Part shown: in pieces, positions 1-48,767 of the stretch
Position numbering within the stretch: the first letter of the stretch is position 1
How the letters are laid out: every line of letters begins with the position of its first letter
Sequence record: MZ892903.1
Source: Escherichia phage ELT1
Strand: one strand, 5' to 3'
DNA: 64,000 bases
Made by a program: the position numbers and the translations under genes
The notes under the pieces: model-generated
What the model saw: the letters and a program-made list of their open reading frames with translations, nothing else
Told to the model about the DNA's origin: nothing
Databases searched by the model: none

Positions 1-286
1 ATTGGTCTAGTATGCGATCAATCATTTTAATTGTGTCGGTAGGAAGTTTACTAGCATCTGGAATTGAAGGCGTGTATTTTCTACCAGAATACCCCAAATA
101 TTGCTCACCAAATTTATCAATCAAATCTGGCAACTCGGAGAAAATAAAATCGTATGCTTTGTGTCTAGCATAATTTTTAGTTTCAAAATGTGCAGAATGA
201 AAATAAGCTTGTGCAGCCATTAATAAACCTAAGTATTCATCTGCCTTTGAAGGTTTTCCACTTTGTGAAAAGTCGCTGAATTTCAT
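1..286 (-). CDS. hypothetical protein, truncated by window edge (ATG at 286 overlaps rI stop as ATGA; 3' end beyond position 1)
   Basis: Open minus-strand frame from ATG 286-284 running off the window; translation starts MKFSDFSQSGKPSKADEYLGLL; not in ORF track because incomplete. Confidence 0.4.
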   Translation of the reverse strand, partial: MKFSDFSQSGKPSKADEYLGLLMAAQAYFHSAHFETKNYARHKAYDFIFSELPDLIDKFGEQYLGYSGRKYTPSIPDASKLPTDTIKMIDRILDQ

Positions 287-576
287 TCAGTCTCCAATTT
301 AATGTTCATAATTCTAGCGTATGATTGTGCCATCTCCGCGCCTCGTTCTATACATTCAAAATCAGAAGAGCACGGGTCATTTTTATAGGTCGTTCTCATA
401 AAACTATAGAATTGTTCAGACGATTCTACGCTTTTATTTTCAAAAAGCATATAAACGTGCCTAATACCAGATTCCATAAATTTATCAAAATGAGGATCGA
501 CATTCGCTTCAATCGATGGAGATAAAACAAATGACAATCCTAGCATGGCAAAAAGTGCCGTTGCTTTTAAGGCCAT
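283..576 (-). CDS. rI: lysis inhibition regulator RI-like protein (N-terminal signal-anchor)
   Basis: 97-aa ORF with hydrophobic N-terminus, immediately downstream of tk as in T4; length matches T4 RI as recalled. Confidence 0.6.
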   Translation of the reverse strand: MALKATALFAMLGLSFVLSPSIEANVDPHFDKFMESGIRHVYMLFENKSVESSEQFYSFMRTTYKNDPCSSDFECIERGAEMAQSYARIMNIKLETE

Positions 577-588
577 AAAGGCCTCCTA

Positions 589-801
589 TCATTTTTGTCC
601 TGTATTTACTTTATGCCGATGCACGGCCTTAACTTTATCAAGGTATTTTTCAAAATTTCGCAATCTAGTATAGTCTGCCGGAGATTGGTTGAGTGATACT
701 TCTCGACGCAAAGCTGAAATAACATTTCCAACTTCCCTACGAATTTCATCTAATTGAAGAACAGTAAGATTGCGAAGTTGCTTTTCAGTTAATTGTAGCA
801 T
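589..801 (-). CDS. hypothetical protein
   Basis: 70-aa ORF between tk and rI, same strand. Confidence 0.5.
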
Positions 802-843
802 ATATACCCCTTTAGTTAGATAAACCTATTTATAACTTTTGCA

Positions 844-1425
844 CTAACCGAGCTTTTTAGTTAATTCATTCCAATGTTTTCTGCACAAAGAAACATAAAT
901 TTCATCACCAATACAGATTTGATTACCTTCTTTAACTGGTGTTCCATCTTCCATTAATCGAGCTGTCATAATCGCTTTTTTACCGCAATGACAAACTGCC
1001 TTTAGTTCAATAAGTTTATCTGCAATCGCCAAAAGTTCTTTAGAACCTTCAAATAATTTTCCAGCGAAATCAGTCCTTAGACCATAAGCCATAACAGGAA
1101 CATTATATGTATCGACAATTCGGCTTAATTGATGTACCTGTTCAGTTTTTAAAAACTGAGCTTCATCTACAAATACACAATGAATATCTTTTTGTGCTTC
1201 AGCCCATTTATAGAACTCAAAAATATCCATATCATCCGTAATAATATTCGCTTCCTGTTTAATTCCAATGCGAGAAACGACTTCACAGACAGAATCGCGA
1301 GTATCAATAGCAGGCTTAAGAACTAATACACTCATTCCGCGTTCTTTATAATTATGTGCAGCAGTCAAAAGAGAAGCAGATTTTCCAGCATTCATTGCTG
1401 CATAAGTAAAAATTAAACTCGCCAT
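844..1425 (-). CDS. tk: thymidine kinase
   Basis: 193-aa ORF, P-loop AMNAGKSAS, Cys cluster near C-terminus typical of Tk; T4 Tk length. Confidence 0.95.
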   Translation of the reverse strand: MASLIFTYAAMNAGKSASLLTAAHNYKERGMSVLVLKPAIDTRDSVCEVVSRIGIKQEANIITDDMDIFEFYKWAEAQKDIHCVFVDEAQFLKTEQVHQLSRIVDTYNVPVMAYGLRTDFAGKLFEGSKELLAIADKLIELKAVCHCGKKAIMTARLMEDGTPVKEGNQICIGDEIYVSLCRKHWNELTKKLG

Positions 1426-1426
1426 T

Positions 1427-1615
1427 TTAGTCCTTAGTTAAATTTTCTAAATATGTTTCTAAATCATTTTCAGCTTTATCGATAGATTTTACTAATTCGT
1501 AGTATGTTTCGGCATCTCCATATTCAGAAGATATTTCAAAAGACAAATCCTTTTCTAAACTAATAATTTCACCAACTAAAAATAATATTTCGTTCTTTTG
1601 TTCGCGAGTAATCAT
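1427..1615 (-). CDS. hypothetical protein (tk-upstream small ORF)
   Basis: 62-aa ORF, ATGA-coupled to neighbour. Confidence 0.5.
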   Translation of the reverse strand: MITREQKNEILFLVGEIISLEKDLSFEISSEYGDAETYYELVKSIDKAENDLETYLENLTKD

Positions 1616-1797
1616 AAGGAATTTATATAATCAATGAGTTCTTGTTCTTTATTATCAAATTCTTTGGAAAGTTCTTCATATTCATTTGCGCTAAAAGGAC
1701 CGCATTCATCACAAACTTTTTCCAATTCACTGTTTTTATCCATAACTTCGTGGATAAGAGAAAAGAGTTTGTCTTTTTGTTCTTTGCTTAGGCTCAT
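1612..1797 (-). CDS. hypothetical protein (tk-upstream small ORF)
   Basis: 61-aa ORF, ATGA overlap at both ends. Confidence 0.5.
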   Translation of the reverse strand: MSLSKEQKDKLFSLIHEVMDKNSELEKVCDECGPFSANEYEELSKEFDNKEQELIDYINSL

Positions 1798-1967
1798 ATA
1801 TTAATTTCCAGAAGTTTTAAAATAATTCGCTTTTGCTTAAATATTTCCATAGTTAAATGATCAGTATCTTTTTGACCAATTCCAATGGCAAAACCTTTAT
1901 TAGCAGCGAGTTCAATTAAATTATCAAGTTCACGTGACACTTCATATTGTAACTCAGAACTATTCAT
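1794..1967 (-). CDS. hypothetical protein (small, about 57 aa)
   Basis: Manually translated ORF MNSSELQYEVSRELDNLIELAANKGF...; ATG 1967 overlaps upstream stop (ATGA), stop overlaps next start; below 60-aa ORF-track cutoff. Confidence 0.4.
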   Translation of the reverse strand: MNSSELQYEVSRELDNLIELAANKGFAIGIGQKDTDHLTMEIFKQKRIILKLLEINI

Positions 1968-2170
1968 TTCGGTTTACCTTCTTTAACGAAATCTGGATAA
2001 GGATAAAATCCCGAATAAAATCCTTCACATTTATGATTGATGCATCCTTTATTAGAACAATAGCACCAATAATCGAAATCACAAGCCATTTCATCGTTAC
2101 ATAAAGCAAAAACAACCGGCCATTTACACTTTTCACAATGGGCATTTTTAAGAATACTAGTTTGGCTCAT
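1964..2170 (-). CDS. small Cys-rich (putative zinc-binding) protein
   Basis: Cys-rich frame (CEKCKW...CNDEMACDFDYWCYCSNKGCINHKC); likely start at internal Met 2170 overlapping upstream stop as ATGA; ORF track gives 1964..2191. Confidence 0.45.
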   Translation of the reverse strand: MSQTSILKNAHCEKCKWPVVFALCNDEMACDFDYWCYCSNKGCINHKCEGFYSGFYPYPDFVKEGKPK

Positions 2171-2379
2171 AACCATGTAACCTTTAAGCAATATTCTTCT
2201 ACGTGCTGTTTACGACCTTTCTTATCAATAAAGGTATATTCAACGAATGTTCCAATATAATCTTTATCTACATCATGTGGACTATTAATTGGACATTTAG
2301 TACGGCAAATGCGTTCCCATTGACGAATAATTACTGCCTTATTCTTTGGGTCATACGGATGTGGATAATGTATATTCAT
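2167..2379 (-). CDS. hypothetical protein
   Basis: ORF 2167..2394; probable start at Met 2379 overlapping the macro-domain gene stop (ATGA). Confidence 0.45.
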   Translation of the reverse strand: MNIHYPHPYDPKNKAVIIRQWERICRTKCPINSPHDVDKDYIGTFVEYTFIDKKGRKQHVEEYCLKVTWL

Positions 2380-2843
2380 AATAACGGTTCCCAATCAACA
2401 ATCACAATTTCTAATTTAGAGGAATATGTATCTAAAATCCCCTCAATAATATCCCAGTTCCCTTTACCTATGCCTGCACCAATCCTAGGCATATAGATTG
2501 TAGGTTTAATCAGTTTATTTTCACCAAACTCATTTAATTCTAACATACAATTCATTAAAGCGGAATACTCAAAATTTGGCCCTGGTTGAAATTGAGTATA
2601 AAGGTTGAAGCAATACGCTTTATGAGTCCTAAAGTATTTTTCATAGACTGAGTAAGAACCAAGTTTAGTTACATCACCCCATTCAGTCTGTAGTTTATCA
2701 GCTTCCAGAATTTTAGGGAAAGCTTTGGTTAATTGACCTGCGACTCCAGCTTTCATCGTATGAAAACAATTGCATCCATGCGCAATATTTTTACCTTCAG
2801 CGAAAAGGGCGACAATATCGCCCTTGATATATTTTACAATCAT
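2376..2843 (-). CDS. tk.4: macro-domain protein (ADP-ribose binding / hydrolase-like), T4 Tk.4 position
   Basis: 155 aa; macro-like motifs (NIAHGCNCF..., GAGIGKG); sits between vs and tk as T4 tk.4. Confidence 0.65.
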   Translation of the reverse strand: MIVKYIKGDIVALFAEGKNIAHGCNCFHTMKAGVAGQLTKAFPKILEADKLQTEWGDVTKLGSYSVYEKYFRTHKAYCFNLYTQFQPGPNFEYSALMNCMLELNEFGENKLIKPTIYMPRIGAGIGKGNWDIIEGILDTYSSKLEIVIVDWEPLL

Positions 2844-3187
2844 CTAGTACTCAATCCTCGATTATAAGAATCTACCAAACGGTCAACCATTGAATGACAA
2901 GCGGCTTTATCTTTCTCCTCCGCAACTGAACATTCTAAGGTATTCCACTTTTTAGCATATCGTTTTAATAATGTATCGTTTTTGTATCTGCTTGATTTAT
3001 CTCTTTCTCCGTCTTTATATGCATATATTAATTTCTGTGCAAATTCAGCTTGGCATGCTTTATTTTTCCCACAATAATCTGCCGCAGTGCGGTTTACATA
3101 TTCTCTAATTTCAGTATATGATGTATCTGCTGACGCAGAAGCAGAAAATGAAATTAATCCTATACATAAAACCAAAATTTTAGTCAT
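2840..3187 (-). CDS. vs: small secreted protein, Vs (valyl-tRNA synthetase modifier)-like by position and length
   Basis: 115 aa, N-terminal signal peptide MTKILVLCIGLISFSASASA; between vs.1 and tk.4 as in T4; sequence identity not verified. Confidence 0.45.
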   Translation of the reverse strand: MTKILVLCIGLISFSASASADTSYTEIREYVNRTAADYCGKNKACQAEFAQKLIYAYKDGERDKSSRYKNDTLLKRYAKKWNTLECSVAEEKDKAACHSMVDRLVDSYNRGLSTR

Positions 3188-3725
3188 TTACTATTTCCAA
3201 AAGTTTATTATTTTTAAGGTAATTAGCCTTTTCTAGGACTTCAGAAGCATATTTAGAACCAGCTTTAACATTCCATCCCGAATTATAAGAGGATATTGCT
3301 TTTCTTATATCTCCCTTGTGTATATTTAACCAATAAGAAAGTTCAATGTACGCCCAGGAAGCTGAATTGGACCGTTTATTCAACATTCTTTTTATTTCAG
3401 CATCGGTCATATTATAACCAAGTTCCTTAACTCTTGCTCGCATAGTAGGCAAATAATTTTGGAACATTCCGTAGGCGTGATGCTTTGGTTTAGATTTTAA
3501 ATTAACTCCGCCAGAGCTTTCTTGCCATAAAATAGCAGCCATTATATGACCTAATCCGCTCTTGTGGATATTTTTATGTGTTTTATATTTTCCATCCTTA
3601 GAAAATTGTTCCCCGAATTGATACGCGTAACGCATGTTATCGAGTTGGACATTACTGAAAGTATGCTCGGAGCTATGTGCCATCATAGAAATGGCCAATA
3701 GACCAGCGAGTAGTGCTTTTCTCAT
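3180..3725 (-). CDS. vs.1: secreted lytic transglycosylase-like protein (vs.1-like)
   Basis: 181 aa; signal peptide MRKALLAGLLAISMMAHS; SLT-like segment (QESSGG...YGMFQ). Confidence 0.6.
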   Translation of the reverse strand: MRKALLAGLLAISMMAHSSEHTFSNVQLDNMRYAYQFGEQFSKDGKYKTHKNIHKSGLGHIMAAILWQESSGGVNLKSKPKHHAYGMFQNYLPTMRARVKELGYNMTDAEIKRMLNKRSNSASWAYIELSYWLNIHKGDIRKAISSYNSGWNVKAGSKYASEVLEKANYLKNNKLLEIVND

Positions 3726-3732
3726 GCTTACC

Positions 3733-4194
3733 TCATTGAGTTTTAATTACTGCTTTAGAAGCCTTTCCTGGTAAACGACGACTGTTAATAATTGCCATCC
3801 TGCATTGAAGCGACGGGTCTTTGAACTTCGCATTAGGTTTACAAACTGTAAATCCAAGCCAAAGATTTCCATCTGTGATTTCTAGACGTCCAGGACGATA
3901 TTCAACCCCATCAATAAAATCCTCGTCAATGTCAGGACGCGGAGGCATACTCAGGAATTCATTAACTTCTAAAACATGGTCTTTTATTTTATGGAATAAT
4001 TCAAAAACATATGTCTCATCAATCTCCCGTTGAATTGCGCGATCAAGAAGATGTTGAGAATATTTTAGATGAAACGATGAGACCCCTGCTGCTTTTGATG
4101 CCTCACGAATCTCATTGTTAATTTGACGAAACTCCGACTCAAAGTGACGACGGAGCTTATTTCGACGAATAAAAACTTCTGTGTTGATAGTCAT
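3733..4194 (-). CDS. regB: RegB sequence-specific endoribonuclease
   Basis: 153 aa (T4 RegB length); translation matches what I recall of T4 RegB; conserved position next to vs.1. Confidence 0.8.
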   Translation of the reverse strand: MTINTEVFIRRNKLRRHFESEFRQINNEIREASKAAGVSSFHLKYSQHLLDRAIQREIDETYVFELFHKIKDHVLEVNEFLSMPPRPDIDEDFIDGVEYRPGRLEITDGNLWLGFTVCKPNAKFKDPSLQCRMAIINSRRLPGKASKAVIKTQ

Positions 4195-4253
4195 GTTATT
4201 CTCCTCTTAACTGATAGAAAAATTATACCACAGTCAAGAGGAAAAGTAAACAA

Positions 4254-4532
4254 TTATTCTTTAAATCTAATCAATTTATTCATAGACTTTGAAACTTCTG
4301 CACGAACCTCATGTAGATTTTTGAGCTGTTCAAGACGCTGCTCATAGTAAGCAATTTCATCTTCTTCGAGACAGTCCTGTGAATCTTCTTTAAGATAACG
4401 TGCATAGTCCTGGAAAGCGTTACGAACTACTTCCTGGAAGTCATCAAGACTTTGAATTTTCTTAGGAGCAACAGATATACGACGAGGGGCAGTATAATAC
4501 TCATAACCAAACCCTGCGCTTAATTGAGCCAT
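4254..4532 (-). CDS. hypothetical protein
   Basis: ORF 4254..4574; probable start at Met 4532 directly abutting upstream stop. Confidence 0.45.
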
Positions 4533-4798
4533 TAGTATTTTTCCTCTGGTTGGAACACAGCACGGCAAGCCCACATACTGGCTTCTTTGAGTTTCGTTTT
4601 AGCAATAGTTAACTGATCGAGGCTTTCAGCATAATTCTTCGCGAATTCACAGTCTTCACAATTATCTAGTGCTTCCCAGAATTCATCGTATAAAGCATCA
4701 AAGATAAGTCCTAAACGAACTTCAGCGTCTTTAATAGCATTCACTTTACCGATTTTCTCTTCAGTATGTGGCTTATAACCCTTAATATCTTCAATCAT
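4532..4798 (-). CDS. hypothetical protein
   Basis: 88-aa ORF, acidic, CxxC pair. Confidence 0.5.
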
Positions 4799-5012
4799 AT
4801 TTTACTTCCTCACCAGTACCTAAATCATATTCAACTAAACGAATAGGCTCATGAATTCCATATCCTTGAACAGAAATTTCTGTCGTGGGATAAATTCCAT
4901 CAATATCACCCATGTTCCATGCTTCGTTAAATTGCTGTTCGCCTGAATTACTAAACCATTCGGCGAAAGCATTTAGCACATCTTCAGAACCTTCAATAAT
5001 TATCTTTGCCAT
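4791..5012 (-). CDS. hypothetical protein
   Basis: 73-aa ORF abutting GrcA-like gene. Confidence 0.5.
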   Translation of the reverse strand: MAKIIIEGSEDVLNAFAEWFSNSGEQQFNEAWNMGDIDGIYPTTEISVQGYGIHEPIRLVEYDLGTGEEVKYD

Positions 5013-5374
5013 TACAAACTCTCGGTAAAGGTACGAGCGATAACGTCGCGCTGCTGTTCCGGAGTCAGAGAGTTAAAGCGAACTGCATAACCGGATACAC
5101 GGATGGTCAGCTGCGGATATTTTTCCGGATGCTTAACTGCATCTTCCAGAGTTTCACGACGCAGAACGTTAACGTTCAGGTGTTGACCACCTTCAATTTT
5201 AACTGTAGGCTGTTGCTCAATTTCAATTTCACGGGCATGCAAACCATAGAAAATTTCTGGGTCTACAAAAGAGTCCTCTTTAAAGGTTTTAGAGACAATA
5301 ATTCGTGCTTGAATACCATCTTCAAAATAAATAGTACCTTTATGTGTGCCTTCAAGAATTTGATATGCTTTCAT
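5012..5374 (-). CDS. autonomous glycyl radical cofactor (GrcA/YfiD-like; T4 Y06I-type)
   Basis: 120 aa; C-terminal ...[29 protein letters not shown] glycine-radical motif; C-terminal half matches E. coli GrcA as recalled; coding DNA visibly more GC-rich than surroundings. Confidence 0.85.
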
Positions 5375-5381
5375 ATAAACC

Positions 5382-5708
5382 TCAATTAGAAAATAAATTT
5401 ATCCAAGATTGTTCTTTAATTAAAAATGGCTCAGAATCATATGCCATTAAACTTTGGGTGATTAGTCCTTTAAAAGGCCCATCAATAAATTCCATGGTAA
5501 AATATGGAATTTTATTCATTAGCCGTGCATTAGGAGCAGTACACAAAACTCTGCATCCTTTGAATACGCCTTTTTGTAATTTGTATTGCTTAGGATAAAA
5601 TTCGCTCAAGACGTTGTTATTTGCCAAAATTTCAAAATGATTCACTAATTTATTTTTAATAGTTTTTGGCGAAAAATAAAGATATTCGAAAAGTTGCGTG
5701 TCTGTCAT
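5382..5708 (-). CDS. hypothetical protein
   Basis: ORF 5382..5762; probable start at Met overlapping upstream stop near 5708. Confidence 0.45.
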
Positions 5709-6295
5709 CATTGCATTCCGATTATGAAAAACTGTGGACGAGTAATACCACCAATGCAGCATTTACTATTGCAACAGTGGTGCACAGTTTCAATATGAAT
5801 ATCGTAAATTTTATCCATATCAGGAGATTTGACAGGCTCATCAATTATATACAAAATCCGCGAAAGCGATAAACCTCTGAACTTGCTTCCTTTATTACCG
5901 ATAAAACTGCGCACAGAATCAGTAAATAAACGAAAACGTATATCATCATTAGAATAACGCGAAAATTCCTTTTTGATGCTATTTGCAGAAATTTTAGCGT
6001 AAGCTGAAGTATTAGAAAGAACAATAACTGTTCCACCGTCATACAACCAATTAGCGGCAAAATTAGTTACTGCAGTTGATTTACCGGATTGACGTCCACC
6101 ATCTAGTCGAAGTGTGCAATACTGCTTAAGTAAGTCTTCAAATGGCGGGATATAATCGTTTTTACAAATTTCTTCTACTCTAGCATCAGAATGGTGTGTA
6201 AAAGCATTCATCAGGGATAGATAAGGACCAGTTAAAAATGTTCTCATTTTGTTCTCTCTAGGTTTGGGCCATTCCATGGCGCATGAATTGTCCAT
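5708..6295 (-). CDS. P-loop NTPase-like hypothetical protein
   Basis: Walker A-like GGRQSGKST and Walker B-like ILYIIDE; start may be internal Met at 6247. Confidence 0.5.
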   Translation of the reverse strand: MDNSCAMEWPKPRENKMRTFLTGPYLSLMNAFTHHSDARVEEICKNDYIPPFEDLLKQYCTLRLDGGRQSGKSTAVTNFAANWLYDGGTVIVLSNTSAYAKISANSIKKEFSRYSNDDIRFRLFTDSVRSFIGNKGSKFRGLSLSRILYIIDEPVKSPDMDKIYDIHIETVHHCCNSKCCIGGITRPQFFIIGMQ

Positions 6296-6388
6296 TTCTG
6301 TATTTACCCATTACCGCACTTGGGCTCGACCTTATTACAGGTTGGCGGGAATCCCTCACAGAATCATGAGGTCCAGGTTGTTCCCATA

Positions 6389-6862
6389 TTATTTGAACGA
6401 TTTAACGTACTGAATAGAACCTTTACTATTCACGAAAGCGATTTTACCATTTTTATTATACATGGTAGCAGTACGCTGATAGCCATAAGTTTGCTTACCA
6501 GATTGATAACCAACTAATGCAAAATTATCTTCACCCATTTTATTCTGTTTAGCGCGAATGCGTTCATGACCATGTGCCATAAGAACCTTAGCATCACCAG
6601 TTGCAATGGATCGACGAGTTTTTTCATCTTCAACTGTATTAACAAAGTCGTCAAATGAATCAAATTTAGCATGAGATTTATTATACAGTTTTCCATCTAC
6701 TGCATAATTATATCCCTGTACATCCATCTCAACTTCTGTACCATCATCCAATACAGCAGTGATTTTCTGTCCTTTTTTAAATTTCAAAAGATCAGTAAAA
6801 GATTCAGCAATAATTTGAGAATTAATAGCTGCTTCAGTAATAAATTCTTGATATGTTTTCAT
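6389..6862 (-). CDS. internal head protein (IPIII/IPII-like) with capsid-targeting N-terminus
   Basis: 157 aa starting MKTYQEFITE|A, the T4 internal-protein targeting sequence with an xxE cleavage context; immediately upstream of e. Confidence 0.65.
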   Translation of the reverse strand: MKTYQEFITEAAINSQIIAESFTDLLKFKKGQKITAVLDDGTEVEMDVQGYNYAVDGKLYNKSHAKFDSFDDFVNTVEDEKTRRSIATGDAKVLMAHGHERIRAKQNKMGEDNFALVGYQSGKQTYGYQRTATMYNKNGKIAFVNSKGSIQYVKSFK

Positions 6863-6955
6863 GTGTTTCCTTTAAATGTAAATATTTTAATTGGTAATTG
6901 TCTATTCAAGTAACTGTGAATATACTATCACAATTCTAAGAGAAAGTAAACAGCT

Positions 6956-7450
<495 letters not shown>

Positions 7451-7490
7451 TCATAATACCTCCTAAGTATTTATAGAAGGTATTTATAAA

Positions 7491-7946
7491 TTAAAAGAGG
7501 TTGTTCATTATTCGGTAAAGTGAAGGACCCATCACATATTGCCACTGAGTACGAGGAATAAGAGCAAAAGCGTCCATCTCTGGAATCATAACACCATCTT
7601 TATTTTCAAAATAAGACTCACAATGGCAATTTCTAAACATCTCATGCTCTACTGGAATCGTATAATAAAATAACTGTAAGTCTTTATTACTAGAATATTT
7701 AAATACACCTAGGTCTTCTAGAAGGTCTGGATTATAATTGCTAAAACCGGTCTCTTCTAAGCATTCTCTTTTTGCAGCTTCCAGTGCATTCAAATCAGAA
7801 CTTTCTACACGTCCCTTTGGAATATCCCAGCGATGTGCCATCATTCCAGGCTTACGAGAACCAGTAACCCGACCCATAAATAAATCTTTATCTTCTGTCA
7901 TGAAGATAATACCAGCTGATAATGTTTTCATTTTAATTTCCTGCAT
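7491..7946 (-). CDS. nudE: Nudix hydrolase NudE (e.1)
   Basis: Nudix box ...KRECLEETGF...; adjacent to e; alternative start Met at 7931 (ATGA-coupled). Confidence 0.85.
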   Translation of the reverse strand: MQEIKMKTLSAGIIFMTEDKDLFMGRVTGSRKPGMMAHRWDIPKGRVESSDLNALEAAKRECLEETGFSNYNPDLLEDLGVFKYSSNKDLQLFYYTIPVEHEMFRNCHCESYFENKDGVMIPEMDAFALIPRTQWQYVMGPSLYRIMNNLF

Positions 7947-8119
7947 TCAGTGATAAAGTTATTTAAATTTTGAGCATATTTCTTTTCATCAAAAATCTTT
8001 TGCTGTCTGCGTAAACGCCATGGCATTTCAATGAACATACGCCATATTCCTGATAATACTGCTGCTGTAAAAATATTAACAAGTATAGTTAAAAGAACCC
8101 AATCTCCTATTCTGTCCAT
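7928..8119 (-). CDS. small membrane protein
   Basis: 63 aa with one hydrophobic helix. Confidence 0.45.
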   Translation of the reverse strand: MDRIGDWVLLTILVNIFTAAVLSGIWRMFIEMPWRLRRQQKIFDEKKYAQNLNNFITECRKLK

Positions 8120-8415
8120 TGGATTTTTATAAAAAAGTAAAATACGAACGATGATATAGGAAGACTAATGATATACCACAGAATAACCTTCTTATCTGTG
8201 AACCAATCGGCATTCGTTAACTTAGCGCGACCATTTTGAATACACACGAATTTATCATCTGTTACAGTAAATGGTTTAGCTGCTTGATATCCCATTCTAA
8301 ACTCCCTAATTAATCGTTTCTTTGTATCTTCGGAACAACCATTCCAATCAACTCTATCAACTGAAATGCCATCATCCCCATCATCTAAATCATACCAGCG
8401 AGTTTTTAAAATCAT
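8107..8415 (-). CDS. hypothetical protein with C-terminal transmembrane anchor
   Basis: 102 aa; ATGA overlap with upstream gene. Confidence 0.45.
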   Translation of the reverse strand: MILKTRWYDLDDGDDGISVDRVDWNGCSEDTKKRLIREFRMGYQAAKPFTVTDDKFVCIQNGRAKLTNADWFTDKKVILWYIISLPISSFVFYFFIKIQWTE

Positions 8416-8774
8416 TTAATTTTCCTGCAATCGCTCACAAACTCTTTCATTGATTCATTTTCAATATAAGACATGTAGCTATTATATTCTTTTAATTGTA
8501 TTTTGTAATCCTTTTTTCTTTGCCAATTTATTTTAAAATTATCATAATGAAAATATAACATAGTACCAAAGAATGAAAACAATGAAATAATTTTAGTATA
8601 ACAAAGCTCACTCCAAACTTCTGTTATATTTACTGTGTCGTCGATGTTTAAAATAAGACAGTCAATTAACAATCCAAAAATACTACCTGCAAGAGCTGCA
8701 GCCAACGCCACAGCAAAAATTAAAAATGACTCAGGACGCGAATATTTGACTTTATTTAGTTTTGGCTTTTGCAT
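8412..8774 (-). CDS. membrane protein
   Basis: 120 aa, two predicted TM helices. Confidence 0.45.
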   Translation of the reverse strand: MQKPKLNKVKYSRPESFLIFAVALAAALAGSIFGLLIDCLILNIDDTVNITEVWSELCYTKIISLFSFFGTMLYFHYDNFKINWQRKKDYKIQLKEYNSYMSYIENESMKEFVSDCRKIK

Positions 8775-9169
8775 CGTGATTCCTTAACAAATTTCATAAT
8801 TTCATCAAATTCATACGCAGCAAGTTTAAGCTGGTGTTCCTTTTTAATCTTTTTACACTGTGCTTTCCAATCACGTACACGTTTACGATAGTGTCTTCCT
8901 TGATACCAGTATCCTATCCAATTTATAGGTACTAATAAAAGCGGAACTACAAATGGAAGAATTAATACTAACAAAAATATTACGCCAGATTCAATATCAG
9001 TCATAAAGTCTATAACCATTCCAACATTCAATAGAATTACAAATGATATAGCTGTCACAGGACCTGCTAATACGTCAGTAGGAATTAACTGGCGCTTTAG
9101 TTCATACTTTAAAGGTTTACTTGGAAGGTATAGTGATGGCTTTGACATATTCTCTACATTCCTTAACAA
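8756..9169 (-). CDS. membrane protein
   Basis: 137 aa, multiple hydrophobic helices. Confidence 0.45.
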   Translation of the reverse strand: MLRNVENMSKPSLYLPSKPLKYELKRQLIPTDVLAGPVTAISFVILLNVGMVIDFMTDIESGVIFLLVLILPFVVPLLLVPINWIGYWYQGRHYRKRVRDWKAQCKKIKKEHQLKLAAYEFDEIMKFVKESRCKSQN

Positions 9170-9731
9170 ATTTTTCTAATAATAAATCGCTTTCAAAATT
9201 GGGATTTTCCACGAATTTATCAAAAAGATCATCAACAATAGTCAAGATATTCTTTTTACTAAGAATACGCTTATTTTCATATTTTGTTTCAGAGTCAACT
9301 ATAAGAGTAAAGAAATATTTCTTTCCCTGAAATTTTACTGTAGTATCAATATAGAATAAATTTGACTTCTGTAAGTTACGTTTAAACCATGCGTCACTTA
9401 AACTATAAATGCCGAGATAATCATAATCGTCGTTTAAATAACATACTGTCCATTCAGGAGAAATGAAATCAGTAAATTCAACATCAAAATCACACGTCAA
9501 TAAATGAATTGATTCAATACTGTTAATAAGTATTCCAGGACGTATTAAAGACTTTTTACCTCTGGAAAATCTTCCAGAAAGACTTTCATTAGTTTCATAT
9601 GAAGAACCCCAATAGTAATTACGTCCTTCTGCCATGCGTTTAAGAGCATTTAGTAATTGGTCTGGAACATCAACCTGTCTTTGGAACTCTTCAAACATTG
9701 AATTGAAATCACTTTGCATTTTCATTTTCAT
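9117..9731 (-). CDS. hypothetical protein
   Basis: 204-aa ORF, no recognised motif. Confidence 0.5.
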   Translation of the reverse strand: MKMKMQSDFNSMFEEFQRQVDVPDQLLNALKRMAEGRNYYWGSSYETNESLSGRFSRGKKSLIRPGILINSIESIHLLTCDFDVEFTDFISPEWTVCYLNDDYDYLGIYSLSDAWFKRNLQKSNLFYIDTTVKFQGKKYFFTLIVDSETKYENKRILSKKNILTIVDDLFDKFVENPNFESDLLLEKFVKECREYVKAITIPSK

Positions 9732-9772
9732 TCCTATTTACTCCAAGTAATAGGGGCCGAAGCCCCTTATCA

Positions 9773-10366
9773 TTATTTCAGAGAATTAATGTATTCCTGA
9801 ACATCGGCAGAGGTAGTTTCAACCCCGGAAATATTACCGTTAAAGGTTTCAACTCGAGCAAGGGTATCTTCAATATCAACCTTAGTCAGTGCTGCAATTT
9901 CAACTACATCATCGGCAGTACTAATTCCAAGGGCATTCGCTGCACGAGTTTCACGGATATATTCCAATTTAACCGCAAGTTCTTGGCGTGCATCATCCAA
10001 TTCAACTACTTTCTTAGCGATTTCAATTCGCATTTCAGCATAACCATCAGCTTTAGTAGTCAACTGCTCAGCTGTTCGACGATATAGTAAACCGAGTTTA
10101 GCGTGCATTGTTACATCTTGACCTTCAGAAAGAAGCTTGCGAATTTCACGCTCTTTTGATTCGGCCTGTCGATTCTTTTCGACAATAAGTTCACGAATAC
10201 GCTTTTCTTCATTAATAGATTTAACAGAAGCAGTTTTTAGATCTTTAATTTTATCAAGCAATTTTGCTGCTGCAGCAGTATACTGTTCTTCGACAGATAG
10301 ATTTTTAGCCATAGCAGAACCAAGTTTAGTGCGAATAAACTCAACAATTTTCTTCAGTGTGTTCAT
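9773..10366 (-). CDS. coiled-coil protein (PspA/IM30-like architecture, tentative)
   Basis: 197 aa, long predicted coiled coil with heptad-like charged pattern; followed by a UUCG hairpin. Confidence 0.45.
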
Positions 10367-10409
10367 AGTATTTCCTTAGGTTGATTAGAAATTAAAATCT
10401 GCAGAAGAA

Positions 10410-10943
10410 TTATATCATGCTACTTAAGAGATGTAAACTATTTTTAATTTTACAAATTCGTTCAGCTTCTTCAACAGCGGCAGTGATAATGCTTTTAGCT
10501 ATAGGAGTACTAATACTAGTAGCTTTTACACTTAACACGATTTCTTTATCTTTACCAGGCCAACCCCACGATTTTTCACCATGAGTGCCTTTAATTACAG
10601 CAGACACCTCAAGTGAGCATCCATTATCACATGTTTTTACATTAACAACCCAAGTGTCACTTTTCTCAACCGGTTTATCCCAGTAAATATTAAGAATACG
10701 TGGGACATCAAATTTAGCAGGGCAAATCTTAACCGTAAGACCTTCGCTTTCTAGCCAATTAATAAGAGGGCGTTCATACATGCGGCGATGTGGGCTTTGA
10801 ACTCGACAAGCTTTGTACCCATTGCTCGCGGCTTCACTAAGCTCTTCTAATACCTGCTTTTGCATTATTGATAAGATACCATCAAAAGATTTTTCGGAAG
10901 TTTCATTCAGTTCGGTATAAAGAGACATAACAGTTTTCCTCAA
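10410..10943 (-). CDS. hypothetical protein
   Basis: 177-aa ORF. Confidence 0.5.
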   Translation of the reverse strand: MRKTVMSLYTELNETSEKSFDGILSIMQKQVLEELSEAASNGYKACRVQSPHRRMYERPLINWLESEGLTVKICPAKFDVPRILNIYWDKPVEKSDTWVVNVKTCDNGCSLEVSAVIKGTHGEKSWGWPGKDKEIVLSVKATSISTPIAKSIITAAVEEAERICKIKNSLHLLSSMI

Positions 10944-10984
10944 ATTATAGGCTCATAATATCTCAATCATGAGCCTATGTAAAC

Positions 10985-11248
10985 TTATTTCATATTATTG
11001 AAATATTCTTCTGCGATTTCATCGTTATCATGGTAAACTTTAGAAGACAGTTTAACATAACCTTCAGCAGTGAACATATTAATCACAACCTTTACAGTAT
11101 ACCACTGACCATCTTCATTACCCATTACTGCGTAAGTTTCAAACATCGGATGATCAGGACCGATAACTTTAATATCATTCACTGTACGACCAAAATCTTC
11201 TGAAACACATTTCATAAAGAAGTTGAACAGTTCGCCGTAATTATCCAT
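10985..11248 (-). CDS. hypothetical protein
   Basis: ORF 10985..11311; start moved to Met 11248 (RBS GGAGA) because an early-promoter motif lies at 11290-11325. Confidence 0.4.
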   Translation of the reverse strand: MDNYGELFNFFMKCVSEDFGRTVNDIKVIGPDHPMFETYAVMGNEDGQWYTVKVVINMFTAEGYVKLSSKVYHDNDEIAEEYFNNMK

Positions 11249-11289
11249 TTCATTCTCCAAGTTGTTTTCTGTATCAGTAGTTGATAGTT

Positions 11290-11325
11290 GTATAGTACCA
11301 TGGAAGGGCAAGGATGTAAACCGTT
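11290..11325 (-). promoter_or_regulatory. T4 early-type promoter (GTTTACA -35, 16-17 nt spacer, TACTATA -10)
   Basis: Minus strand reads ...GGTTTACATCC...TGGTACTATACA; same motif family as 15100-15136 and 15462-15500. Confidence 0.4.
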
Positions 11326-11454
11326 TTGTGAAAAAATTTTAAAAAGTTTTGGGGAATTCTAGGGCAGGGAGGGGAAATCAAAGGATAGGATAATATATTA
11401 TAAAGGGTAGAAACTAAATGATGCCTAGAGAGGTCCAGAAAGGCCTAGATACCA

Positions 11455-11482
11455 AAAAGCCCCAACCTTTCGGTCGGGGCTA
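11455..11482 (-). terminator. rho-independent terminator (minus strand)
   Basis: Minus strand reads GCCCC-GACCGAAAGGTT-GGGGC followed by TTTTTGG. Confidence 0.5.
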
Positions 11483-11531
11483 AGCCTTGCGGCAACCTTG
11501 TCGGGGTTCCACCTGCTAAGGCAAGTGTTTG

Positions 11532-11623
11532 TACGAAACGCCGGGATTCGAACCCGGTTATTAAGTAGTTGACGCTACTCAATATTTTTAAAAGGCCATA
11601 TCTCGACCATATCCGAACGTTCC
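11532..11623 (-). ncRNA. tRNA-like structured RNA (possible T4 species-1/2 stable RNA counterpart or tRNA remnant)
   Basis: Perfect T-arm CCGGG-TTCGAAT-CCCGG, 7-bp acceptor pairing CGGAACG/CGTTTCG, variable-arm hairpin GTAG-CGTCAA-CTAC; no convincing D or anticodon stem. Confidence 0.35.
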
Positions 11624-11787
11624 GTCAAAAACGCTACTCGGCTTACGGCAAAGATATTTCCTCGAATCGATAATTCGGTGCGCCGTTTCTGCTGTGATAG
11701 TAAAGAATCAGAACACAGTAAAACTGTGGGAGAAACTATACTCCAGGGAACATCAGTCCGACGACTTACCGGTAGCGACCCGGTTTC

Positions 11788-12138
11788 TTAATATTCTTTT
11801 AAAGCATCAACCTGTTCACGACGTTTACGCCATAAATCAATTGCTTCATACGCGGATTCAGCATTTCGAATTAGCCGGCATTTATGTAAAGACTTATGAT
11901 TTTGATATTGTGTAGATAACGGAATTGTATCTAAAAGGTCTTTACGATCAAAATATTCGTAACCATCTAAACCAAATGAACGATTTTTGAGAAATTGCCA
12001 ATGACCATATTCGTTTTCGACATAAACATAATCTGCATGCTGATAAAGCAAATTAATTACACGTTCAGAAATAACAGTATCATTATGATTAAAATAGAAT
12101 GTTAAATCATGAACTACTAAATAAACATTACCTTTCAT
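11788..12138 (-). CDS. hypothetical protein
   Basis: ORF 11788..12189; better RBS (GAGGA) before internal Met at 12138. Confidence 0.4.
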   Translation of the reverse strand: MKGNVYLVVHDLTFYFNHNDTVISERVINLLYQHADYVYVENEYGHWQFLKNRSFGLDGYEYFDRKDLLDTIPLSTQYQNHKSLHKCRLIRNAESAYEAIDLWRKRREQVDALKEY

Positions 12139-12217
12139 ATTTTCCTCACTTAAAGTTGGTGCCTCTAGAAAGATTTGAACTCTCACCATTAACCTTAGAA
12201 CGATTATATGCTATCCA

Positions 12218-12889
12218 TTACACTATAGAGGCAATTAAATTATTTACAATATCTTCTTTATAAACTTCAGCATAATGAAGTTCATATATTTCCCATCCTA
12301 ATGATTTTATAATATCATGGCGTTCTTTATAATAAGGGGCCAAAATCTTTTTCTTAGGATTGGAGTAATGTTGGTTTCCATTAACTTCAATAATAATCTT
12401 TTTATCTATTAAAGCAATATCCGCGCAATACGCTCGGTTTTTAACCGGTTGGTATTCTTCAATAAATGAAATTCCGTTTTCTATTAATTTAGATTTCAAA
12501 AATTCACAAGGCACAGATTTAAATTTTGTATTTTTCTTCCAAGGATGTTTATCGGGGTTTTCATTCAACCATTTTTTCCGAGCATTAGATATTTTTATTC
12601 TAGATTCCTCAGAGTGTTCTCTACCTAATGAAGCGGCTGACCATTTTTGTCTAGTCTCTTCCGAAATTACTACAGGAACACCAGTCTTTTTAGATACAAC
12701 ATACTGGTTTAAATTACCTGAAGCTATACGTGCTTTATTCATTGCTGCAATGGCTGATTTAGAACTTTCTTTATACAATTCCAATTTAGGGTTGGATTTA
12801 CACCATCTAGTGTGGTTAGCCATCCATCCTTTAGGTTTATTAGAAATATCAAATTCCATATTACAATGTTTACAAATTCTCATTACCAA
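12218..12889 (-). CDS. putative freestanding homing endonuclease: N-terminal Zn-finger-like, NUMOD3 motifs, C-terminal Vsr/DUF559-like (PD-(D/E)xK) domain
   Basis: 223 aa; CKHC...HTRWC; NUMOD3-like LGREHSEESRIKISNARKKW; C-terminus ...YCADIALIDKKIIIEVNGNQHY...ERHDIIKSLGWEIYEL; no GIY-YIG motif although it sits where T4 has segB. Confidence 0.55.
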   Translation of the reverse strand: MVMRICKHCNMEFDISNKPKGWMANHTRWCKSNPKLELYKESSKSAIAAMNKARIASGNLNQYVVSKKTGVPVVISEETRQKWSAASLGREHSEESRIKISNARKKWLNENPDKHPWKKNTKFKSVPCEFLKSKLIENGISFIEEYQPVKNRAYCADIALIDKKIIIEVNGNQHYSNPKKKILAPYYKERHDIIKSLGWEIYELHYAEVYKEDIVNNLIASIV

Positions 12890-12957
12890 TTATCTCCTAT
12901 AAAATATAGGAGTATTTATTATTTGGATAGAGCACTTAATTTACTTCGTTTAAATTA

Positions 12958-13029
12958 CTGGCGCACTTGGACTCGAACCAAGATAAAGGAGTTAACAGCT
13001 CCCCGTAATAACCTTTATACGATGCACCA
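12958..13029 (-). tRNA. tRNA-Asn (anticodon GUU), 3-bp D-stem, no encoded CCA
   Basis: Manual fold: acceptor TGGTGCA/TGCGCCA (one G-U), T-arm CTTGG-TTCGAGT-CCAAG, anticodon loop CTGTTAA. Confidence 0.55.
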
Positions 13030-13035
13030 TTTGTT

Positions 13036-13110
13036 TGGTGACCCTGGCTGGTTTCGATCCAGCTACCTATCAGTTATGAGCTGACAGCTCTCCCATTGAG
13101 CTACAGGGCC
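13036..13110 (-). tRNA. tRNA-Ile (anticodon CAU, T4 tRNA-Ile type; Met/Ile formally ambiguous), CCA encoded
   Basis: Acceptor GGCCCTG/CAGGGTC, anticodon loop CTCATAA, T-arm GCTGG-ATCGAAA-CCAGC. Confidence 0.7.
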
Positions 13111-13116
13111 TTGATA

Positions 13117-13189
13117 TGCTGATTGACGGAATCGAACCGCCGACGTCCTCATTACAAGTGAGGTGCTCTACCTACTGAGCTAAATCAGC
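13117..13189 (-). tRNA. tRNA-Thr (anticodon UGU)
   Basis: Cloverleaf GCTGATTTAGCTCAGTAGGTAGAGC...CTTGTAA...GGTTCGATTCC... Confidence 0.8.
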
Positions 13190-13196
13190 GAAATTA

Positions 13197-13283
13197 CGGA
13201 GGCGATAGGATTTGAACCTATGAGTCGCCGGAGCGACTGCCGGTTTTCAAGACCGGTGCATTAAACCACTCTGCCACGCCTCC
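13197..13283 (-). tRNA. tRNA-Ser (anticodon UGA), long variable arm
   Basis: Reverse complement matches T4 tRNA-Ser as recalled (GGAGGCGTGGCAGAGTGG...CTTGAAA...). Confidence 0.9.
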
Positions 13284-13285
13284 AG

Positions 13286-13359
13286 TCTCCGTGGCAGGAT
13301 TTGAACCTACGACATTCTGCTCCCAAAGCAGACGCTCTACCAAACTGAGCTACACGGAG
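13286..13359 (-). tRNA. tRNA-Pro (anticodon UGG)
   Basis: Acceptor CTCCGTG/CACGGAG, anticodon loop TTTGGGA, T-loop TTCAAAT. Confidence 0.85.
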
Positions 13360-13369
13360 TAAATTAAAT

Positions 13370-13443
<74 letters not shown>

Positions 13444-13448
13444 AAATT

Positions 13449-13535
13449 TGGTGCGAGAAGTGGGACTCGAACCCACAAGGAAATCATTCCGCAGCATTTT
13501 AAGTGCTGTGCCTTTACCAATTTGACCATTCTCGC
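13449..13535 (-). tRNA. tRNA-Leu (anticodon UAA), long variable arm, CCA encoded
   Basis: Acceptor GCGAGAA/TTCTCGC, anticodon loop CTTAAAA, T-arm GTGGG-TTCGAGT-CCCAC. Confidence 0.85.
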
Positions 13536-13536
13536 G

Positions 13537-13609
13537 CTGGGAATAAAGGACTCGAACCTTTGCATCTAGCAGTCAAAGTGCTATGCCTTACCAACTTGGC
13601 TAATTCCCA
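13537..13609 (-). tRNA. tRNA-Gln (anticodon UUG)
   Basis: Acceptor TGGGAAT/ATTCCCA, anticodon loop CTTTGAC; 1-nt spacer to tRNA-Leu (dimeric precursor arrangement). Confidence 0.85.
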
Positions 13610-14504: not shown

Positions 14505-14507
14505 TAT

Positions 14508-14888: not shown

Positions 14889-14889
14889 T

Positions 14890-32190: not shown

Positions 32191-33737
32191 GTAACAATAC
32201 ATATCAGCACGTATCAAATGAATCAAAATATGTTAAATTCGATCCCACTGGATCGAATTTTCCTGACACTGTCACGACAGTGCAGTCTGCATTATCAAAA
32301 ATAAGTAATATCGGTGTAAATGGTATTCCTGATGCAACTATGGAAGTTAAAGGAATAGCAATGATTGCGTCAGAGCAAGAGGTTTTAGATGGAACTAATA
32401 ATTCTAAAATCGTTACACCAGCTACATTAGCAACAAGATTATTGTATCCAAATGCTACTGAAACTAAGTATGGTTTAACGCGCTATTCAACAAATGAAGA
32501 AACATTAGAAGGCTCAGATAATAATTCATCAATAACGCCGCAAAAACTGAAATACCATACTGACGATGTGTTCAAAAATAGATATTCGTCTGAGTCATCA
32601 AACGGGGTTATTAAAATATCATCTACACCTGCAGCTTTAGCTGGAGTTGATGATACTACGGCAATGACTCCATTAAAAACGCAAAAACTTGCAATAAAAT
32701 TAATTTCACAAATAGCTCCTTCCGAAGATACTGCATCAGAATCTGTGAGAGGTGTAGTTCAATTATCTACTGTTGCACAAACTCGTCAAGGAACTCTCCG
32801 AGAAGGATATGCAATTTCCCCGTATACCTTTATGAATTCTGTTGCAACGCAAGAATATAAGGGTGTTATACGTCTAGGAACACAGACTGAAATTAATAAT
32901 AATTTGGGGGATGTTGCAGTAACAGGTGAAACACTAAACGGTCGAGGAGCTACCGGTTCTATGCGTGGGGTGGTAAAATTAACGACGCAAGCCGGTATTG
33001 CCCCTGAAGGTGATAGCTCTGGAGCATTAGCATGGAACGCAGATGTAATTAATACTCGTGGTGGACAAACTATTAATGGTTCTTTAAATTTAGACCATCT
33101 TACAGCAAACGGAATTTGGTCGCGCGGCGGAATGTGGAAAAATGGCGATCAACCTGTTGCCACTGAAAGATATGCGTCAGAAAGAGTTCCAGTTGGAACT
33201 ATTATGATGTTTGCGGGAGATTCGGCACCTCCGGGTTGGATTATGTGCCACGGTGGAACAGTGTCAGGAGATCAATATCCTGATTATAGAAACACAGTTG
33301 GAACAAGATTTGGTGGGGATTGGAATAATCCAGGGATTCCTGATATGCGAGGTCTTTTCGTCAGAGGAGCTGGCACAGGAGGTCATATTTTAAATCAACG
33401 AGGACAAGATGGTTATGGAAAGGATAGACTGGGCGTAGGATGTGACGGAATGCATGTTGGTGGTGTTCAGGCACAACAAATGTCATACCATAAACATGCT
33501 GGTGGTTGGGGTGAATATAACAGAAGTGAAGGCCCATTTGGCGCGTCAGTTTATCAAGGATATCTTGGAACTAGAAAATATTCCGACTGGGATAATGCTT
33601 CATACTTCACTAATGATGGATTTGAATTGGGTGGACCGAGAGATGCCCTTGGTACACTTAATCGTGAAGGATTAATTGGTTATGAAACTAGACCATGGAA
33701 TATATCATTAAACTATATTATTAAAATTCATTACTAA
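32187..33737 (+). CDS. 12: short tail fiber gp12
   Basis: 516 aa; synteny. Confidence 0.9.
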
Positions 33738-47201: not shown

Positions 47202-48767
47202 ATGACTATCAAAACTAAAGCTGAACTTTTGAACAAATGGAAGCCATTACTGGAAGGTGAAGGTTTACCGGAAATTGCTAATAGCAAACAAGCGATTATC
47301 GCTAAAATCTTTGAAAACCAGGAAAAAGATTTCCAGACAGCTCCGGAATATAAAGACGAAAAAATTGCTCAGGCATTCGGTTCTTTCTTAACAGAAGCTG
47401 AAATCGGTGGTGACCACGGTTACAATGCTACCAACATCGCCGCAGGTCAGACTTCTGGCGCAGTAACTCAGATTGGCCCAGCTGTTATGGGTATGGTACG
47501 TCGTGCTATTCCTAACCTGATTGCTTTCGATATTTGTGGTGTTCAGCCAATGAACAGCCCGACTGGCCAGGTATTCGCGCTGCGCGCAGTATATGGTAAA
47601 GATCCAATCGCTTCCGGCGCTAAAGAAGCATTCCACCCAATGTATGGTCCAGATGCAATGTTCTCTGGTCAGGGTGCTGCTAAGAAATTCGCTGCTTTGA
47701 AAGCAAGTGATACTCTTGAAGTCGGAACTATTTACACTCACTTCTTCCAGGAAACTGGTACAGTATATCTGCAAGCTACAGCAGCTAAACAAATTGGTTC
47801 AGGCGCATCTGACGCAGACAAATTAGATGCTGAAATTAAGAAACAAATGGAAGCTGGTGTACTGGTAGAAATCGCTGAAGGTATGGCTACTTCTATCGCT
47901 GAACTTCAGGAAGGTTTCAACGGTTCTACCGATAACCCATGGAATGAAATGGGCTTCCGTATCGATAAACAAGTTATCGAAGCTAAATCTCGTCAGCTGA
48001 AAGCTGCTTACTCTATTGAATTAGCACAAGACCTCCGCGCTGTTCATGGTATGGATGCTGATGCTGAACTGTCTGGTATTCTGGCTACAGAAATTATGCT
48101 GGAAATCAACCGCGAAGTTGTTGATTGGATTAACTACTCCGCTCAGGTTGGTAAATCTGGTATGACCCTGACTCCGGGTTCTAAAGCTGGTGTATTTGAC
48201 TTCCAGGACCCAATCGATATTCGTGGTGCTCGCTGGGCAGGTGAATCCTTTAAAGCTCTGTTGTTCCAGATTGACAAAGAAGCAGTTGAAATTGCTCGTC
48301 AGACTGGTCGCGGCGAAGGTAACTTCATTATCGCTTCCCGTAACGTAGTTAACGTTCTGGCTTCAGTTGATACCGGCATTTCTTATGCTGCACAGGGTCT
48401 GGCTACCGGCTTTAACACTGATACTACCAAGTCAGTATTTGCTGGTGTTCTGGGTGGTAAATACCGTGTATATATCGACCAGTATGCTAAACAGGATTAT
48501 TTCACTGTAGGTTATAAAGGTCCGAACGAAATGGATGCTGGTATTTACTATGCTCCATATGTAGCTCTGACTCCGCTGCGTGGTTCCGATCCGAAGAACT
48601 TCCAACCAGTAATGGGATTCAAAACTCGTTACGGTATCGGTATCAACCCATTTGCAGAATCCGCTGCTCAGGCTCCGGCTTCTCGCATCCAGAGCGGTAT
48701 GCCTTCTATTCTGAATAGCCTTGGTAAAAACGCTTACTTTAGACGTGTATATGTTAAAGGTATCTAA
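47202..48767 (+). CDS. 23: major capsid protein gp23
   Basis: 521 aa; synteny. Confidence 0.97.
   Translation: MTIKTKAELLNKWKPLLEGEGLPEIANSKQAIIAKIFENQEKDFQTAPEYKDEKIAQAFGSFLTEAEIGGDHGYNATNIAAGQTSGAVTQIGPAVMGMVRRAIPNLIAFDICGVQPMNSPTGQVFALRAVYGKDPIASGAKEAFHPMYGPDAMFSGQGAAKKFAALKASDTLEVGTIYTHFFQETGTVYLQATAAKQIGSGASDADKLDAEIKKQMEAGVLVEIAEGMATSIAELQEGFNGSTDNPWNEMGFRIDKQVIEAKSRQLKAAYSIELAQDLRAVHGMDADAELSGILATEIMLEINREVVDWINYSAQVGKSGMTLTPGSKAGVFDFQDPIDIRGARWAGESFKALLFQIDKEAVEIARQTGRGEGNFIIASRNVVNVLASVDTGISYAAQGLATGFNTDTTKSVFAGVLGGKYRVYIDQYAKQDYFTVGYKGPNEMDAGIYYAPYVALTPLRGSDPKNFQPVMGFKTRYGIGINPFAESAAQAPASRIQSGMPSILNSLGKNAYFRRVYVKGI

Follow-up and report, generated by a model that had tools for sequence, protein, structure and literature searches.

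The vs.6 gene of Escherichia phage ELT1 can be identified with high confidence as the T4-type phage version (protein Y06I) of the autonomous glycyl radical cofactor GrcA, a spare part for pyruvate formate-lyase (PFL), in which codons 61-116 have recently been converted to the sequence of the host gene. The gene as a whole is old and syntenic in T4-like phages, and only the internal tract of 168 nt is recent. What gene this is, to which family it belongs and what it does biochemically was known before, and the RefSeq annotation is correct; in this respect vs.6 is an ordinary, well-annotated and biochemically characterised auxiliary metabolic gene of T4, found in hundreds of sequenced phages. 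In its internal tract, gene conversion from host to phage can be seen cleanly in a natural T4-type phage, and the tract may serve to mark a recent association with a host. No account of the DNA mosaic, or of its recurrence in Klebsiella phages, was found in the literature searched, to which neither the review of the T4 genome nor the primary paper from 2001 belonged; both are possibly, not certainly, undescribed before.

Gene neighbourhood, protein family and function of vs.6

The window, i.e., the whole stretch of ELT1 DNA that was analysed (64,000 nt of record MZ892903.1), belongs to a T4-like phage, since the open reading frames around vs.6 include RegB, vs.1, vs, T4 lysozyme e, and NudE. 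The gene lies downstream of regB and is flanked by vs.5 and vs.7, and these neighbours match those in T4 and in Shigella phage SHFML-11 (Table 1). At the equivalent position, the reference T4 genome carries vs.6, annotated as “autonomous glycyl radical cofactor GrcA”. The orthology with T4 Vs.6 is established by the match to phrog_1209 over residues 1-120 (E = 5.7e-63), together with the conserved early-region position (regB-vs-e). The alignment with T4 Y06I that the first-pass annotation had suggested gives the same answer: both proteins have 120 aa and 118/120 residues are identical (NP_049730), the two substitutions being Q54P and R73H. At the DNA level, vs.6 is 100% identical in SHFML-11, in Escherichia phage vB_EcoM_G8 and in others. 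A megablast search matched 756 phage records, 744 of which cover at least 80% of the gene. The TAA stop codon of vs.6 shares one base with the ATG of the downstream gene (TAATG). A promoter and terminator scan of positions 4200-7000 returned counts equal to the shuffle expectation and is uninformative on expression.

Table 1. Features of the vs.6 gene in the ELT1 window
Feature	Position	Strand	Description
vs.6 / grcA-like CDS, complete	5012..5374	minus	ATG start, 120 aa + stop; from the ORF list; ortholog of T4 Vs.6 (Y06I)
5' half, codons 1-60	5195..5374	minus	Phage-type, AT-rich; encodes the divergent N-terminal half, whose counterpart in E. coli GrcA is the disordered region that binds cPFL
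Host-derived gene-conversion tract, codons 61-116 (EGGQHLNV...ARTF)	5027..5194	minus	GC 0.50; structured glycyl-radical domain
Gly95 codon, radical-bearing glycine of RVSGYAV	5090..5092	minus	Equivalent to G102 of E. coli GrcA and G734 of PflB; from direct reading, motif indexing and the PflB alignment
Last four codons (TESL) + stop	5012..5026	minus	Amino acids as in E. coli, 4 synonymous differences; outside the converted tract
Putative Shine-Dalgarno-like GAGG	5380..5383	minus	5 nt upstream of the vs.6 ATG; consensus resemblance; overlaps the stop codon of upstream vs.7

Some features of the neighbourhood deserve a separate description. The vs.7 homolog (5382..5762, minus strand) overlaps vs.8 by 55 nt when the start of the longest ORF is used. 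Its true start is probably the ATG at 5711, because T4 vs.7 has 109 aa and residue 18 is where the match to phrog_2049 starts; this start would give a 4-nt ATGA overlap with vs.8, as in T4. The sole gene between vs.8 and lysozyme e (6389..6862, minus strand) is an internal-virion-protein gene (phrog_3155), and the ELT1 stretch 5382..6956, unlike that of T4, is without denV, ipII, and ipIII. SHFML-11, whose grcA is 100% identical, has denV there, and the region is thus mosaic among very close relatives.

The protein contains a single Gly_radical domain according to Pfam (PF01228, E = 2.5e-18, residues 60-101), and a 120-aa ORF with this single domain corresponds to a small stand-alone glycyl radical protein of ~14 kDa. 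Among NCBIfam models, the GrcA equivalog TIGR04365 (IPR011140) ranks best, followed by GrcA3, GrcA2, and then PFL. The full-length score of TIGR04365 (154.9 bits, E = 1.2e-45) does not reach its curated cut-off of 170 bits, because the N-terminal half is so divergent; the scores of the GrcA2 and GrcA3 models likewise lie below their own cut-offs. The best PDB match is E. coli GrcA (YfiD, 6OWR; E = 9e-42), and PflB is next. Residues 61-120 are identical to residues 68-127 of E. coli GrcA at 60/60 positions, and the radical-glycine motif RVSGYAV is present with Gly95. Both proteins are stand-alone and of ~14 kDa. Relative to E. coli GrcA, the phage protein has 7 residues fewer and an identity of only ~21-30% in the N-terminal half, and its gene is AT-rich and belongs to a phage operon with translationally overlapped neighbours. 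The first-pass annotation had described a GrcA/YfiD-type autonomous glycyl radical protein of 120 aa, with a C-terminal half matching E. coli GrcA through the radical glycine motif and a divergent N-terminal half; each of these points was borne out, and the translation it quoted is exact.

The N-terminal half shows 16 identities to E. coli GrcA in 75 alignment columns, and the N-terminal 60 residues alone matched no NCBIfam family. The comparison of phage and bacterial GrcA N-terminal alignments with hhalign paired phage residues 18-60 with bacterial residues 24-67 at 93.5% probability (E = 2.3e-7, ~30% identity). This homology indicates that the whole gene descends from grcA and that its 5' half is old and diverged. 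The N-terminal half is conserved among T4-like genera.

The relation to PFL itself is restricted to the radical domain. Phage residues 58-120 align with PflB residues 697-759 (E = 5e-26 in the PDB search) and mimic this C-terminal domain; the C-terminal 60 residues are ~76% identical to the PflB C-terminus, and the DNA is ~80% identical. The PFL model TIGR01255 matched only at positions 680-744 of 744, with 89 bits against a cut-off of 994. A PFL has a catalytic barrel in a protein of ~760 aa and the Cys418/Cys419 pair; the 120-residue vs.6 protein lacks both this pair and the barrel of ~695 residues, for which reason the annotation “pyruvate formate-lyase”, used in several phage records, is a wrong name.

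The two spare-part proteins that have been validated are E. coli YfiD and T4 Y06I (PMC8683613). In both cases, the glycyl radical is installed by the PFL activase (PFL-AE) and oxygen-cleaved PFL (cPFL) is restored in the complex, which is credited to Wagner et al. 2001 (PMC8683613). Residues 61-127 of YfiD adopt the fold of PFL residues 693-759, and residues 1-60 are disordered; the latter matter for cPFL binding and efficient radical installation, not for catalysis (PMC8683613). By analogy, we infer that the ELT1 protein works as in T4. The phage-made protein would bind host PflB cleaved by oxygen at Gly734, the host activase PflA would install the glycyl radical on Gly95, and the vs.6 protein would replace the lost C-terminal domain of PflB, with the fermentation of pyruvate to acetyl-CoA and formate being kept running in micro-oxic conditions. 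PflA and PflB are not encoded in the ELT1 window, and the host proteins would serve. The phage copy would matter because T4 shuts off host transcription and degrades host DNA, so that host grcA is no longer expressed; the benefit to the phage would presumably be the fermentation maintained in the infected cell. The divergent N-terminal half would be the counterpart of the disordered GrcA region that mediates cleaved-PFL binding and efficient activation. Judged from the sequence, affinity or target preference could differ from those of E. coli GrcA, because the protein diverges most in the very part to which cPFL binding and activation have been attributed.

A role in nucleotide metabolism was also proposed on the basis of the Gly_radical match (Nolan et al., 2006; PMC1524935). 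If it is correct, then the protein serves the phage anaerobic ribonucleotide reductase (NrdD), or another glycyl radical enzyme, and not host PFL. Besides this proposal, the homolog in Aeromonas phage ZPAH1, located directly between nrdG (anaerobic RNR activase) and a thioredoxin gene, and the speculation that some GrcA-like proteins repair other glycyl radical enzymes (PMC8683613) favour such a role. However, the ELT1 protein and E. coli GrcA have identical radical domains, and among full-size enzymes PflB comes closest, at an E-value of 5e-26, compared to 1e-12 or weaker for the other glycyl radical enzymes in the PDB search. No NrdD family appears among the NCBIfam or PDB matches at E ≤ 1, and all matches are to PFL-clade glycyl radical enzymes. 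Moreover, PFL-AE reportedly activates T4 Y06I, which then rescues cleaved PFL (PMC8683613). A role with NrdD or another glycyl radical enzyme instead of host PFL is thus very unlikely, and a spare part for host PFL is the preferred reading of the protein.

The GC-rich tract and its identity to E. coli grcA

The base composition of vs.6 changes within the gene: the GC content is 0.34 over gene nt 1-178 and 0.49 over nt 179-363, compared with 0.358 for the whole window. In the 5' half (codons 1-60) it is 0.33, and the GC content of third codon positions (GC3) is 0.20. The 168-nt tract has a GC content of 0.50 (z = 3.0) and belongs to the top 0.7% of same-length windows; five further regions of the window, the tRNA cluster among them, equal it. 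The raised GC content that the first-pass annotation had placed at about 5012-5200 is therefore real. At the same 168-nt scale, a GC content of at least 0.50 is also seen at 11398..11642, 33101..33273, 47392..47726, and 48518..48738, and none of these four regions has a megablast match in the E. coli genomes. The tRNA cluster comprises nine genes at 12157..13609 on the minus strand (Arg, Asn, Met/Ile(CAT), Thr, Ser, Pro, Gly, Leu, and Gln). T4 has eight tRNAs and is not known to carry tRNA-Asn, and the ELT1 phage thus apparently carries one tRNA extra.

A blastn search against 5,426 complete E. coli genomes aligned only nt 179-363 of the gene, at 97.3-97.8% identity, to grcA in all of them; upstream of nt 179 the gene gave no blastn alignment to E. 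coli. In a protein-guided alignment, the 5' half has 47% nucleotide identity to E. coli grcA. Codons 61-116 are identical at 168/168 positions to the grcA of E. coli SK1144 and at 167/168 to the K-12-type allele. The maximum chi-square test placed a breakpoint relative to E. coli grcA at gene nt 178, with 36.5% identity before it and 97.3% after it, and the observed value was matched by 0 of 2000 permutations. Since the break lies at nt 178, the step in GC content and the step in identity share one boundary; this answers the question, raised in the first-pass annotation, of whether a recombination boundary coincides with the identity break between the N- and C-terminal halves. The horizontal acquisition it had suggested holds for the GC-rich segment, which is the E. 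coli-derived 168-nt tract; the gene as a whole is old in T4-like phages and is no recent acquisition.

The tract is surrounded by phage-type sequence on both sides. The last four codons lie outside it, because they carry 4 synonymous differences from E. coli. The idea that these tail codons (ACC GAG AGT TTG) are kept as a Shine-Dalgarno sequence for the overlapping downstream gene is unsupported, as codons 117-118 of T4 are the E. coli-like ACT GAA. In the rest of the window, megablast of positions 1-4990, 5400-22000, 21000-43000, and 42000-64000 against the same E. coli genomes gave no match; only 5008-5197 of the 64 kb matches E. coli DNA, namely grcA and, at ~80%, pflB. Potential donors were compared in a sample of 80 bacterial grcA loci from a genome scan and 49 metagenomic alleles. 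Escherichia alleles reach 166-168/168, and the next genera at most 155/168. Among the records encountered, CP125156.1, labelled a K. pneumoniae “plasmid”, has 5.37 Mb and is evidently a chromosome, the K. aerogenes grcA in LR134122.1 is apparently frameshifted, and a contig labelled Vagococcus sp. carries an enterobacterial grcA.

The mosaic is shared with T4, in which the tract is identical at 167/168 positions to the SK1144 allele. Unlike in ELT1, where the E. coli-like sequence ends at codon 116, it extends to codon 118 in T4. At residue 73, reference T4 has His (CAT), a nonsynonymous change inside the otherwise host-identical tract; Arg is found at this residue in ELT1, T4_ev151, the Mosigvirus copy, both Pseudotevenvirus and both Klebsiella-phage copies, and E. 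coli. In the numbering of E. coli GrcA, the host-identical tract begins at residue 68, ~7 residues inside the structured domain, so the conversion boundary lies approximately where the disordered binding region gives way to the structured domain. With a host-identical radical domain and a binding region free to diverge, phage/host chimeras are natural reagents for studying the recognition of damaged PFL.

Recent transfer from the host to the phage

In the strongly favoured explanation, homologous recombination (gene conversion) with the chromosomal grcA of E. coli recently replaced codons 61-116 and thereby created the GC-rich island; recombination during infection is the likely route of transfer. 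The same identity might arise if purifying selection and a shared codon preference acted on an anciently acquired gene, with no recent transfer of DNA. The domain is indeed extremely conserved: Pseudotevenvirus PF-CE2 and ELT1 encode the same 60 residues as E. coli, and the tract dN is 0 in several lineages. However, conservation of the protein is compatible with extensive synonymous change. The peptide is the same, or almost the same, in other T4-like genera, yet 15-28 of ~56 codons differ synonymously from E. coli, and constraint at the protein level is thereby ruled out as the cause of the identity. In PF-CE2, the tract has 0 amino-acid differences from E. coli (dN = 0, dS = 1.2), which demonstrates purifying selection on the radical domain. 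Such identical-peptide lineages differ at 23-24 of 56 codons, and in Karamvirus CC31 the dS of the tract relative to E. coli is about 1.1; over the same codons, ELT1 differs at none (dS = 0). The grcA genes of E. coli and of Salmonella or Citrobacter also diverge at synonymous sites (tract dS 0.44-1.3), and the identity in vs.6 begins abruptly, within a few bases. An explanation by constraint and codon preference is therefore extremely unlikely. The recent origin of the tract is also visible between phage genera: in a comparison of the window (Tequatrovirus) with a Mosigvirus, dS drops from 0.47 in the 5' half to 0.075 in the tract, and the tract is consequently younger than the split of the two genera or has spread between them.

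The identity by itself is symmetric, and T4-like phages are abundant and inject their DNA into E. coli and Klebsiella, so the possibility that these bacteria obtained the 3' part of grcA from phages has to be considered. The 5' and 3' parts of bacterial grcA nevertheless show congruent synonymous divergence across genera, with a dS of 0.53 and 0.44, respectively, between E. coli and Citrobacter, and of 0.067 and 0.074 between E. coli and another Escherichia sp.; such congruence is expected from vertical descent. The GC content and GC3 of the tract are host-like, forming an island in an AT-rich phage: GC3 is 0.43 in the tract and 0.45 in E. coli, next to the phage-like 0.20 of the 5' half. In addition, the tract is found inside a full-length grcA in all 5,426 E. 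coli genomes, and each phage group matches its own host genus. The odds of reverse transfer are accordingly very slight, and the congruent divergence in bacteria and the host-like GC3 show that the transfer ran from host to phage.

Although many phage preparations contain host DNA, an artefact of host read contamination or chimeric assembly is next to impossible, as the same mosaic occurs in 744 independent phage records including T4, T2, and RB phages, the tract is in frame with phage-specific sequence on both sides, and it contains lineage-specific substitutions.

Intragenic recombination between host and phage is known for the psbA and psbD genes of cyanophages, in which host segments are exchanged into the phage copy. 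The vs.6 gene is similar in being a phage-carried host metabolic gene with host segments. The gene, the hosts, and the phages are different, however; here, the tract equals an extant host allele base for base, and the phage that received it breaks down host DNA.

Klebsiella phages, other lineages and use as a marker

A comparable mosaic is found in phages of Klebsiella. The copy in Jiaodavirus vB_VIPKPNUMC01 has a GC3 of 0.62 in the tract and 0.23 upstream of it, and it encodes LLDAVEH, a variant typical of Klebsiella-like GrcA. Its nt 181-353 are 96% identical to K. pneumoniae grcA and 88% identical to E. coli grcA. Codons 61-95 are identical to K. pneumoniae grcA at 105/105 positions, followed by six differences up to codon 116. 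A search with K. pneumoniae grcA retrieved 134 Klebsiella-phage records at 90-99%, and all of these alignments begin at bacterial nt 202, which is the junction of ELT1 vs.6. The left edge is common to the patches because homology ends there, and the right edges differ (codon 95 in Jiaodavirus, 116 in ELT1, and 118 in T4). The Klebsiella Jiaodavirus patch, K. pneumoniae-identical instead of E. coli-identical, is independent of the E. coli patch.

These data make it probable that the DNA of the radical domain is re-synchronised time and again with the grcA of the current host, through at least two independent conversions (from E. coli to Tequatrovirus/Mosigvirus and from K. pneumoniae to Jiaodavirus). 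If this is true, it provides evidence from natural populations that strictly lytic, host-DNA-degrading, cytosine-modifying phages still recombine with the host chromosome, and the re-synchronised tract would keep, within the phage genome, a molecular record of the host used recently. Recurrent patching that matches the host is otherwise a modest evolutionary curiosity and no new kind of system.

The copies in Jiaodavirus, Karamvirus, Pseudotevenvirus, Krischvirus, T5-like Demerecviridae, and Aeromonas and Vibrio phages share with vs.6 the two-part architecture and a nearly invariant radical domain. Unlike vs.6, most other phage GrcA-like genes show no recent host identity, being 73-85% identical to any sampled bacterial allele. 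For CC31, Roth22, PF-CE2, IME-CF2, MHG19, Brandy, and the T5-like phages, no bacterial donor above ~86% was found among the 80 genome loci and 49 metagenomic alleles, and there is thus no evidence of recent conversion in these phages. The search of Salmonella grcA against all phages gave no match above 90%, and the collection contains no Salmonella-matched patch.

The T5-like Demerecviridae (fp01, BD13) carry a separate GrcA-like gene of 122 aa, with a tract that has only ~74% identity to that of E. coli. There is hardly any alignment between its N-terminal half and that of the T4-like gene, and the two look unrelated. The annotations of this gene vary, including pyruvate formate-lyase, acetyltransferase, and ribonucleotide reductase subunit, and a 6.3-kb “Listeria phage” record (OR848450.1) matches the T5-like grcA. 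The GrcA-like protein of ZPAH1 has a C-terminal extension past the TESI motif and may be linked to an anaerobic nucleotide-metabolism module.

The two-part structure of the gene is also relevant for diagnostics. A qPCR typing scheme from 2026 uses grcA as a marker of Straboviridae (PMC12845203, Table 3). The forward primer of this scheme maps to the phage-specific 5' half, and cross-amplification of host grcA is therefore not expected. The reverse primer extends from the stop codon through the tail codons into the edge of the tract (codons 115-116) and has one mismatch to the ELT1 window. An assay placed wholly within the conserved tract would detect E. coli itself.
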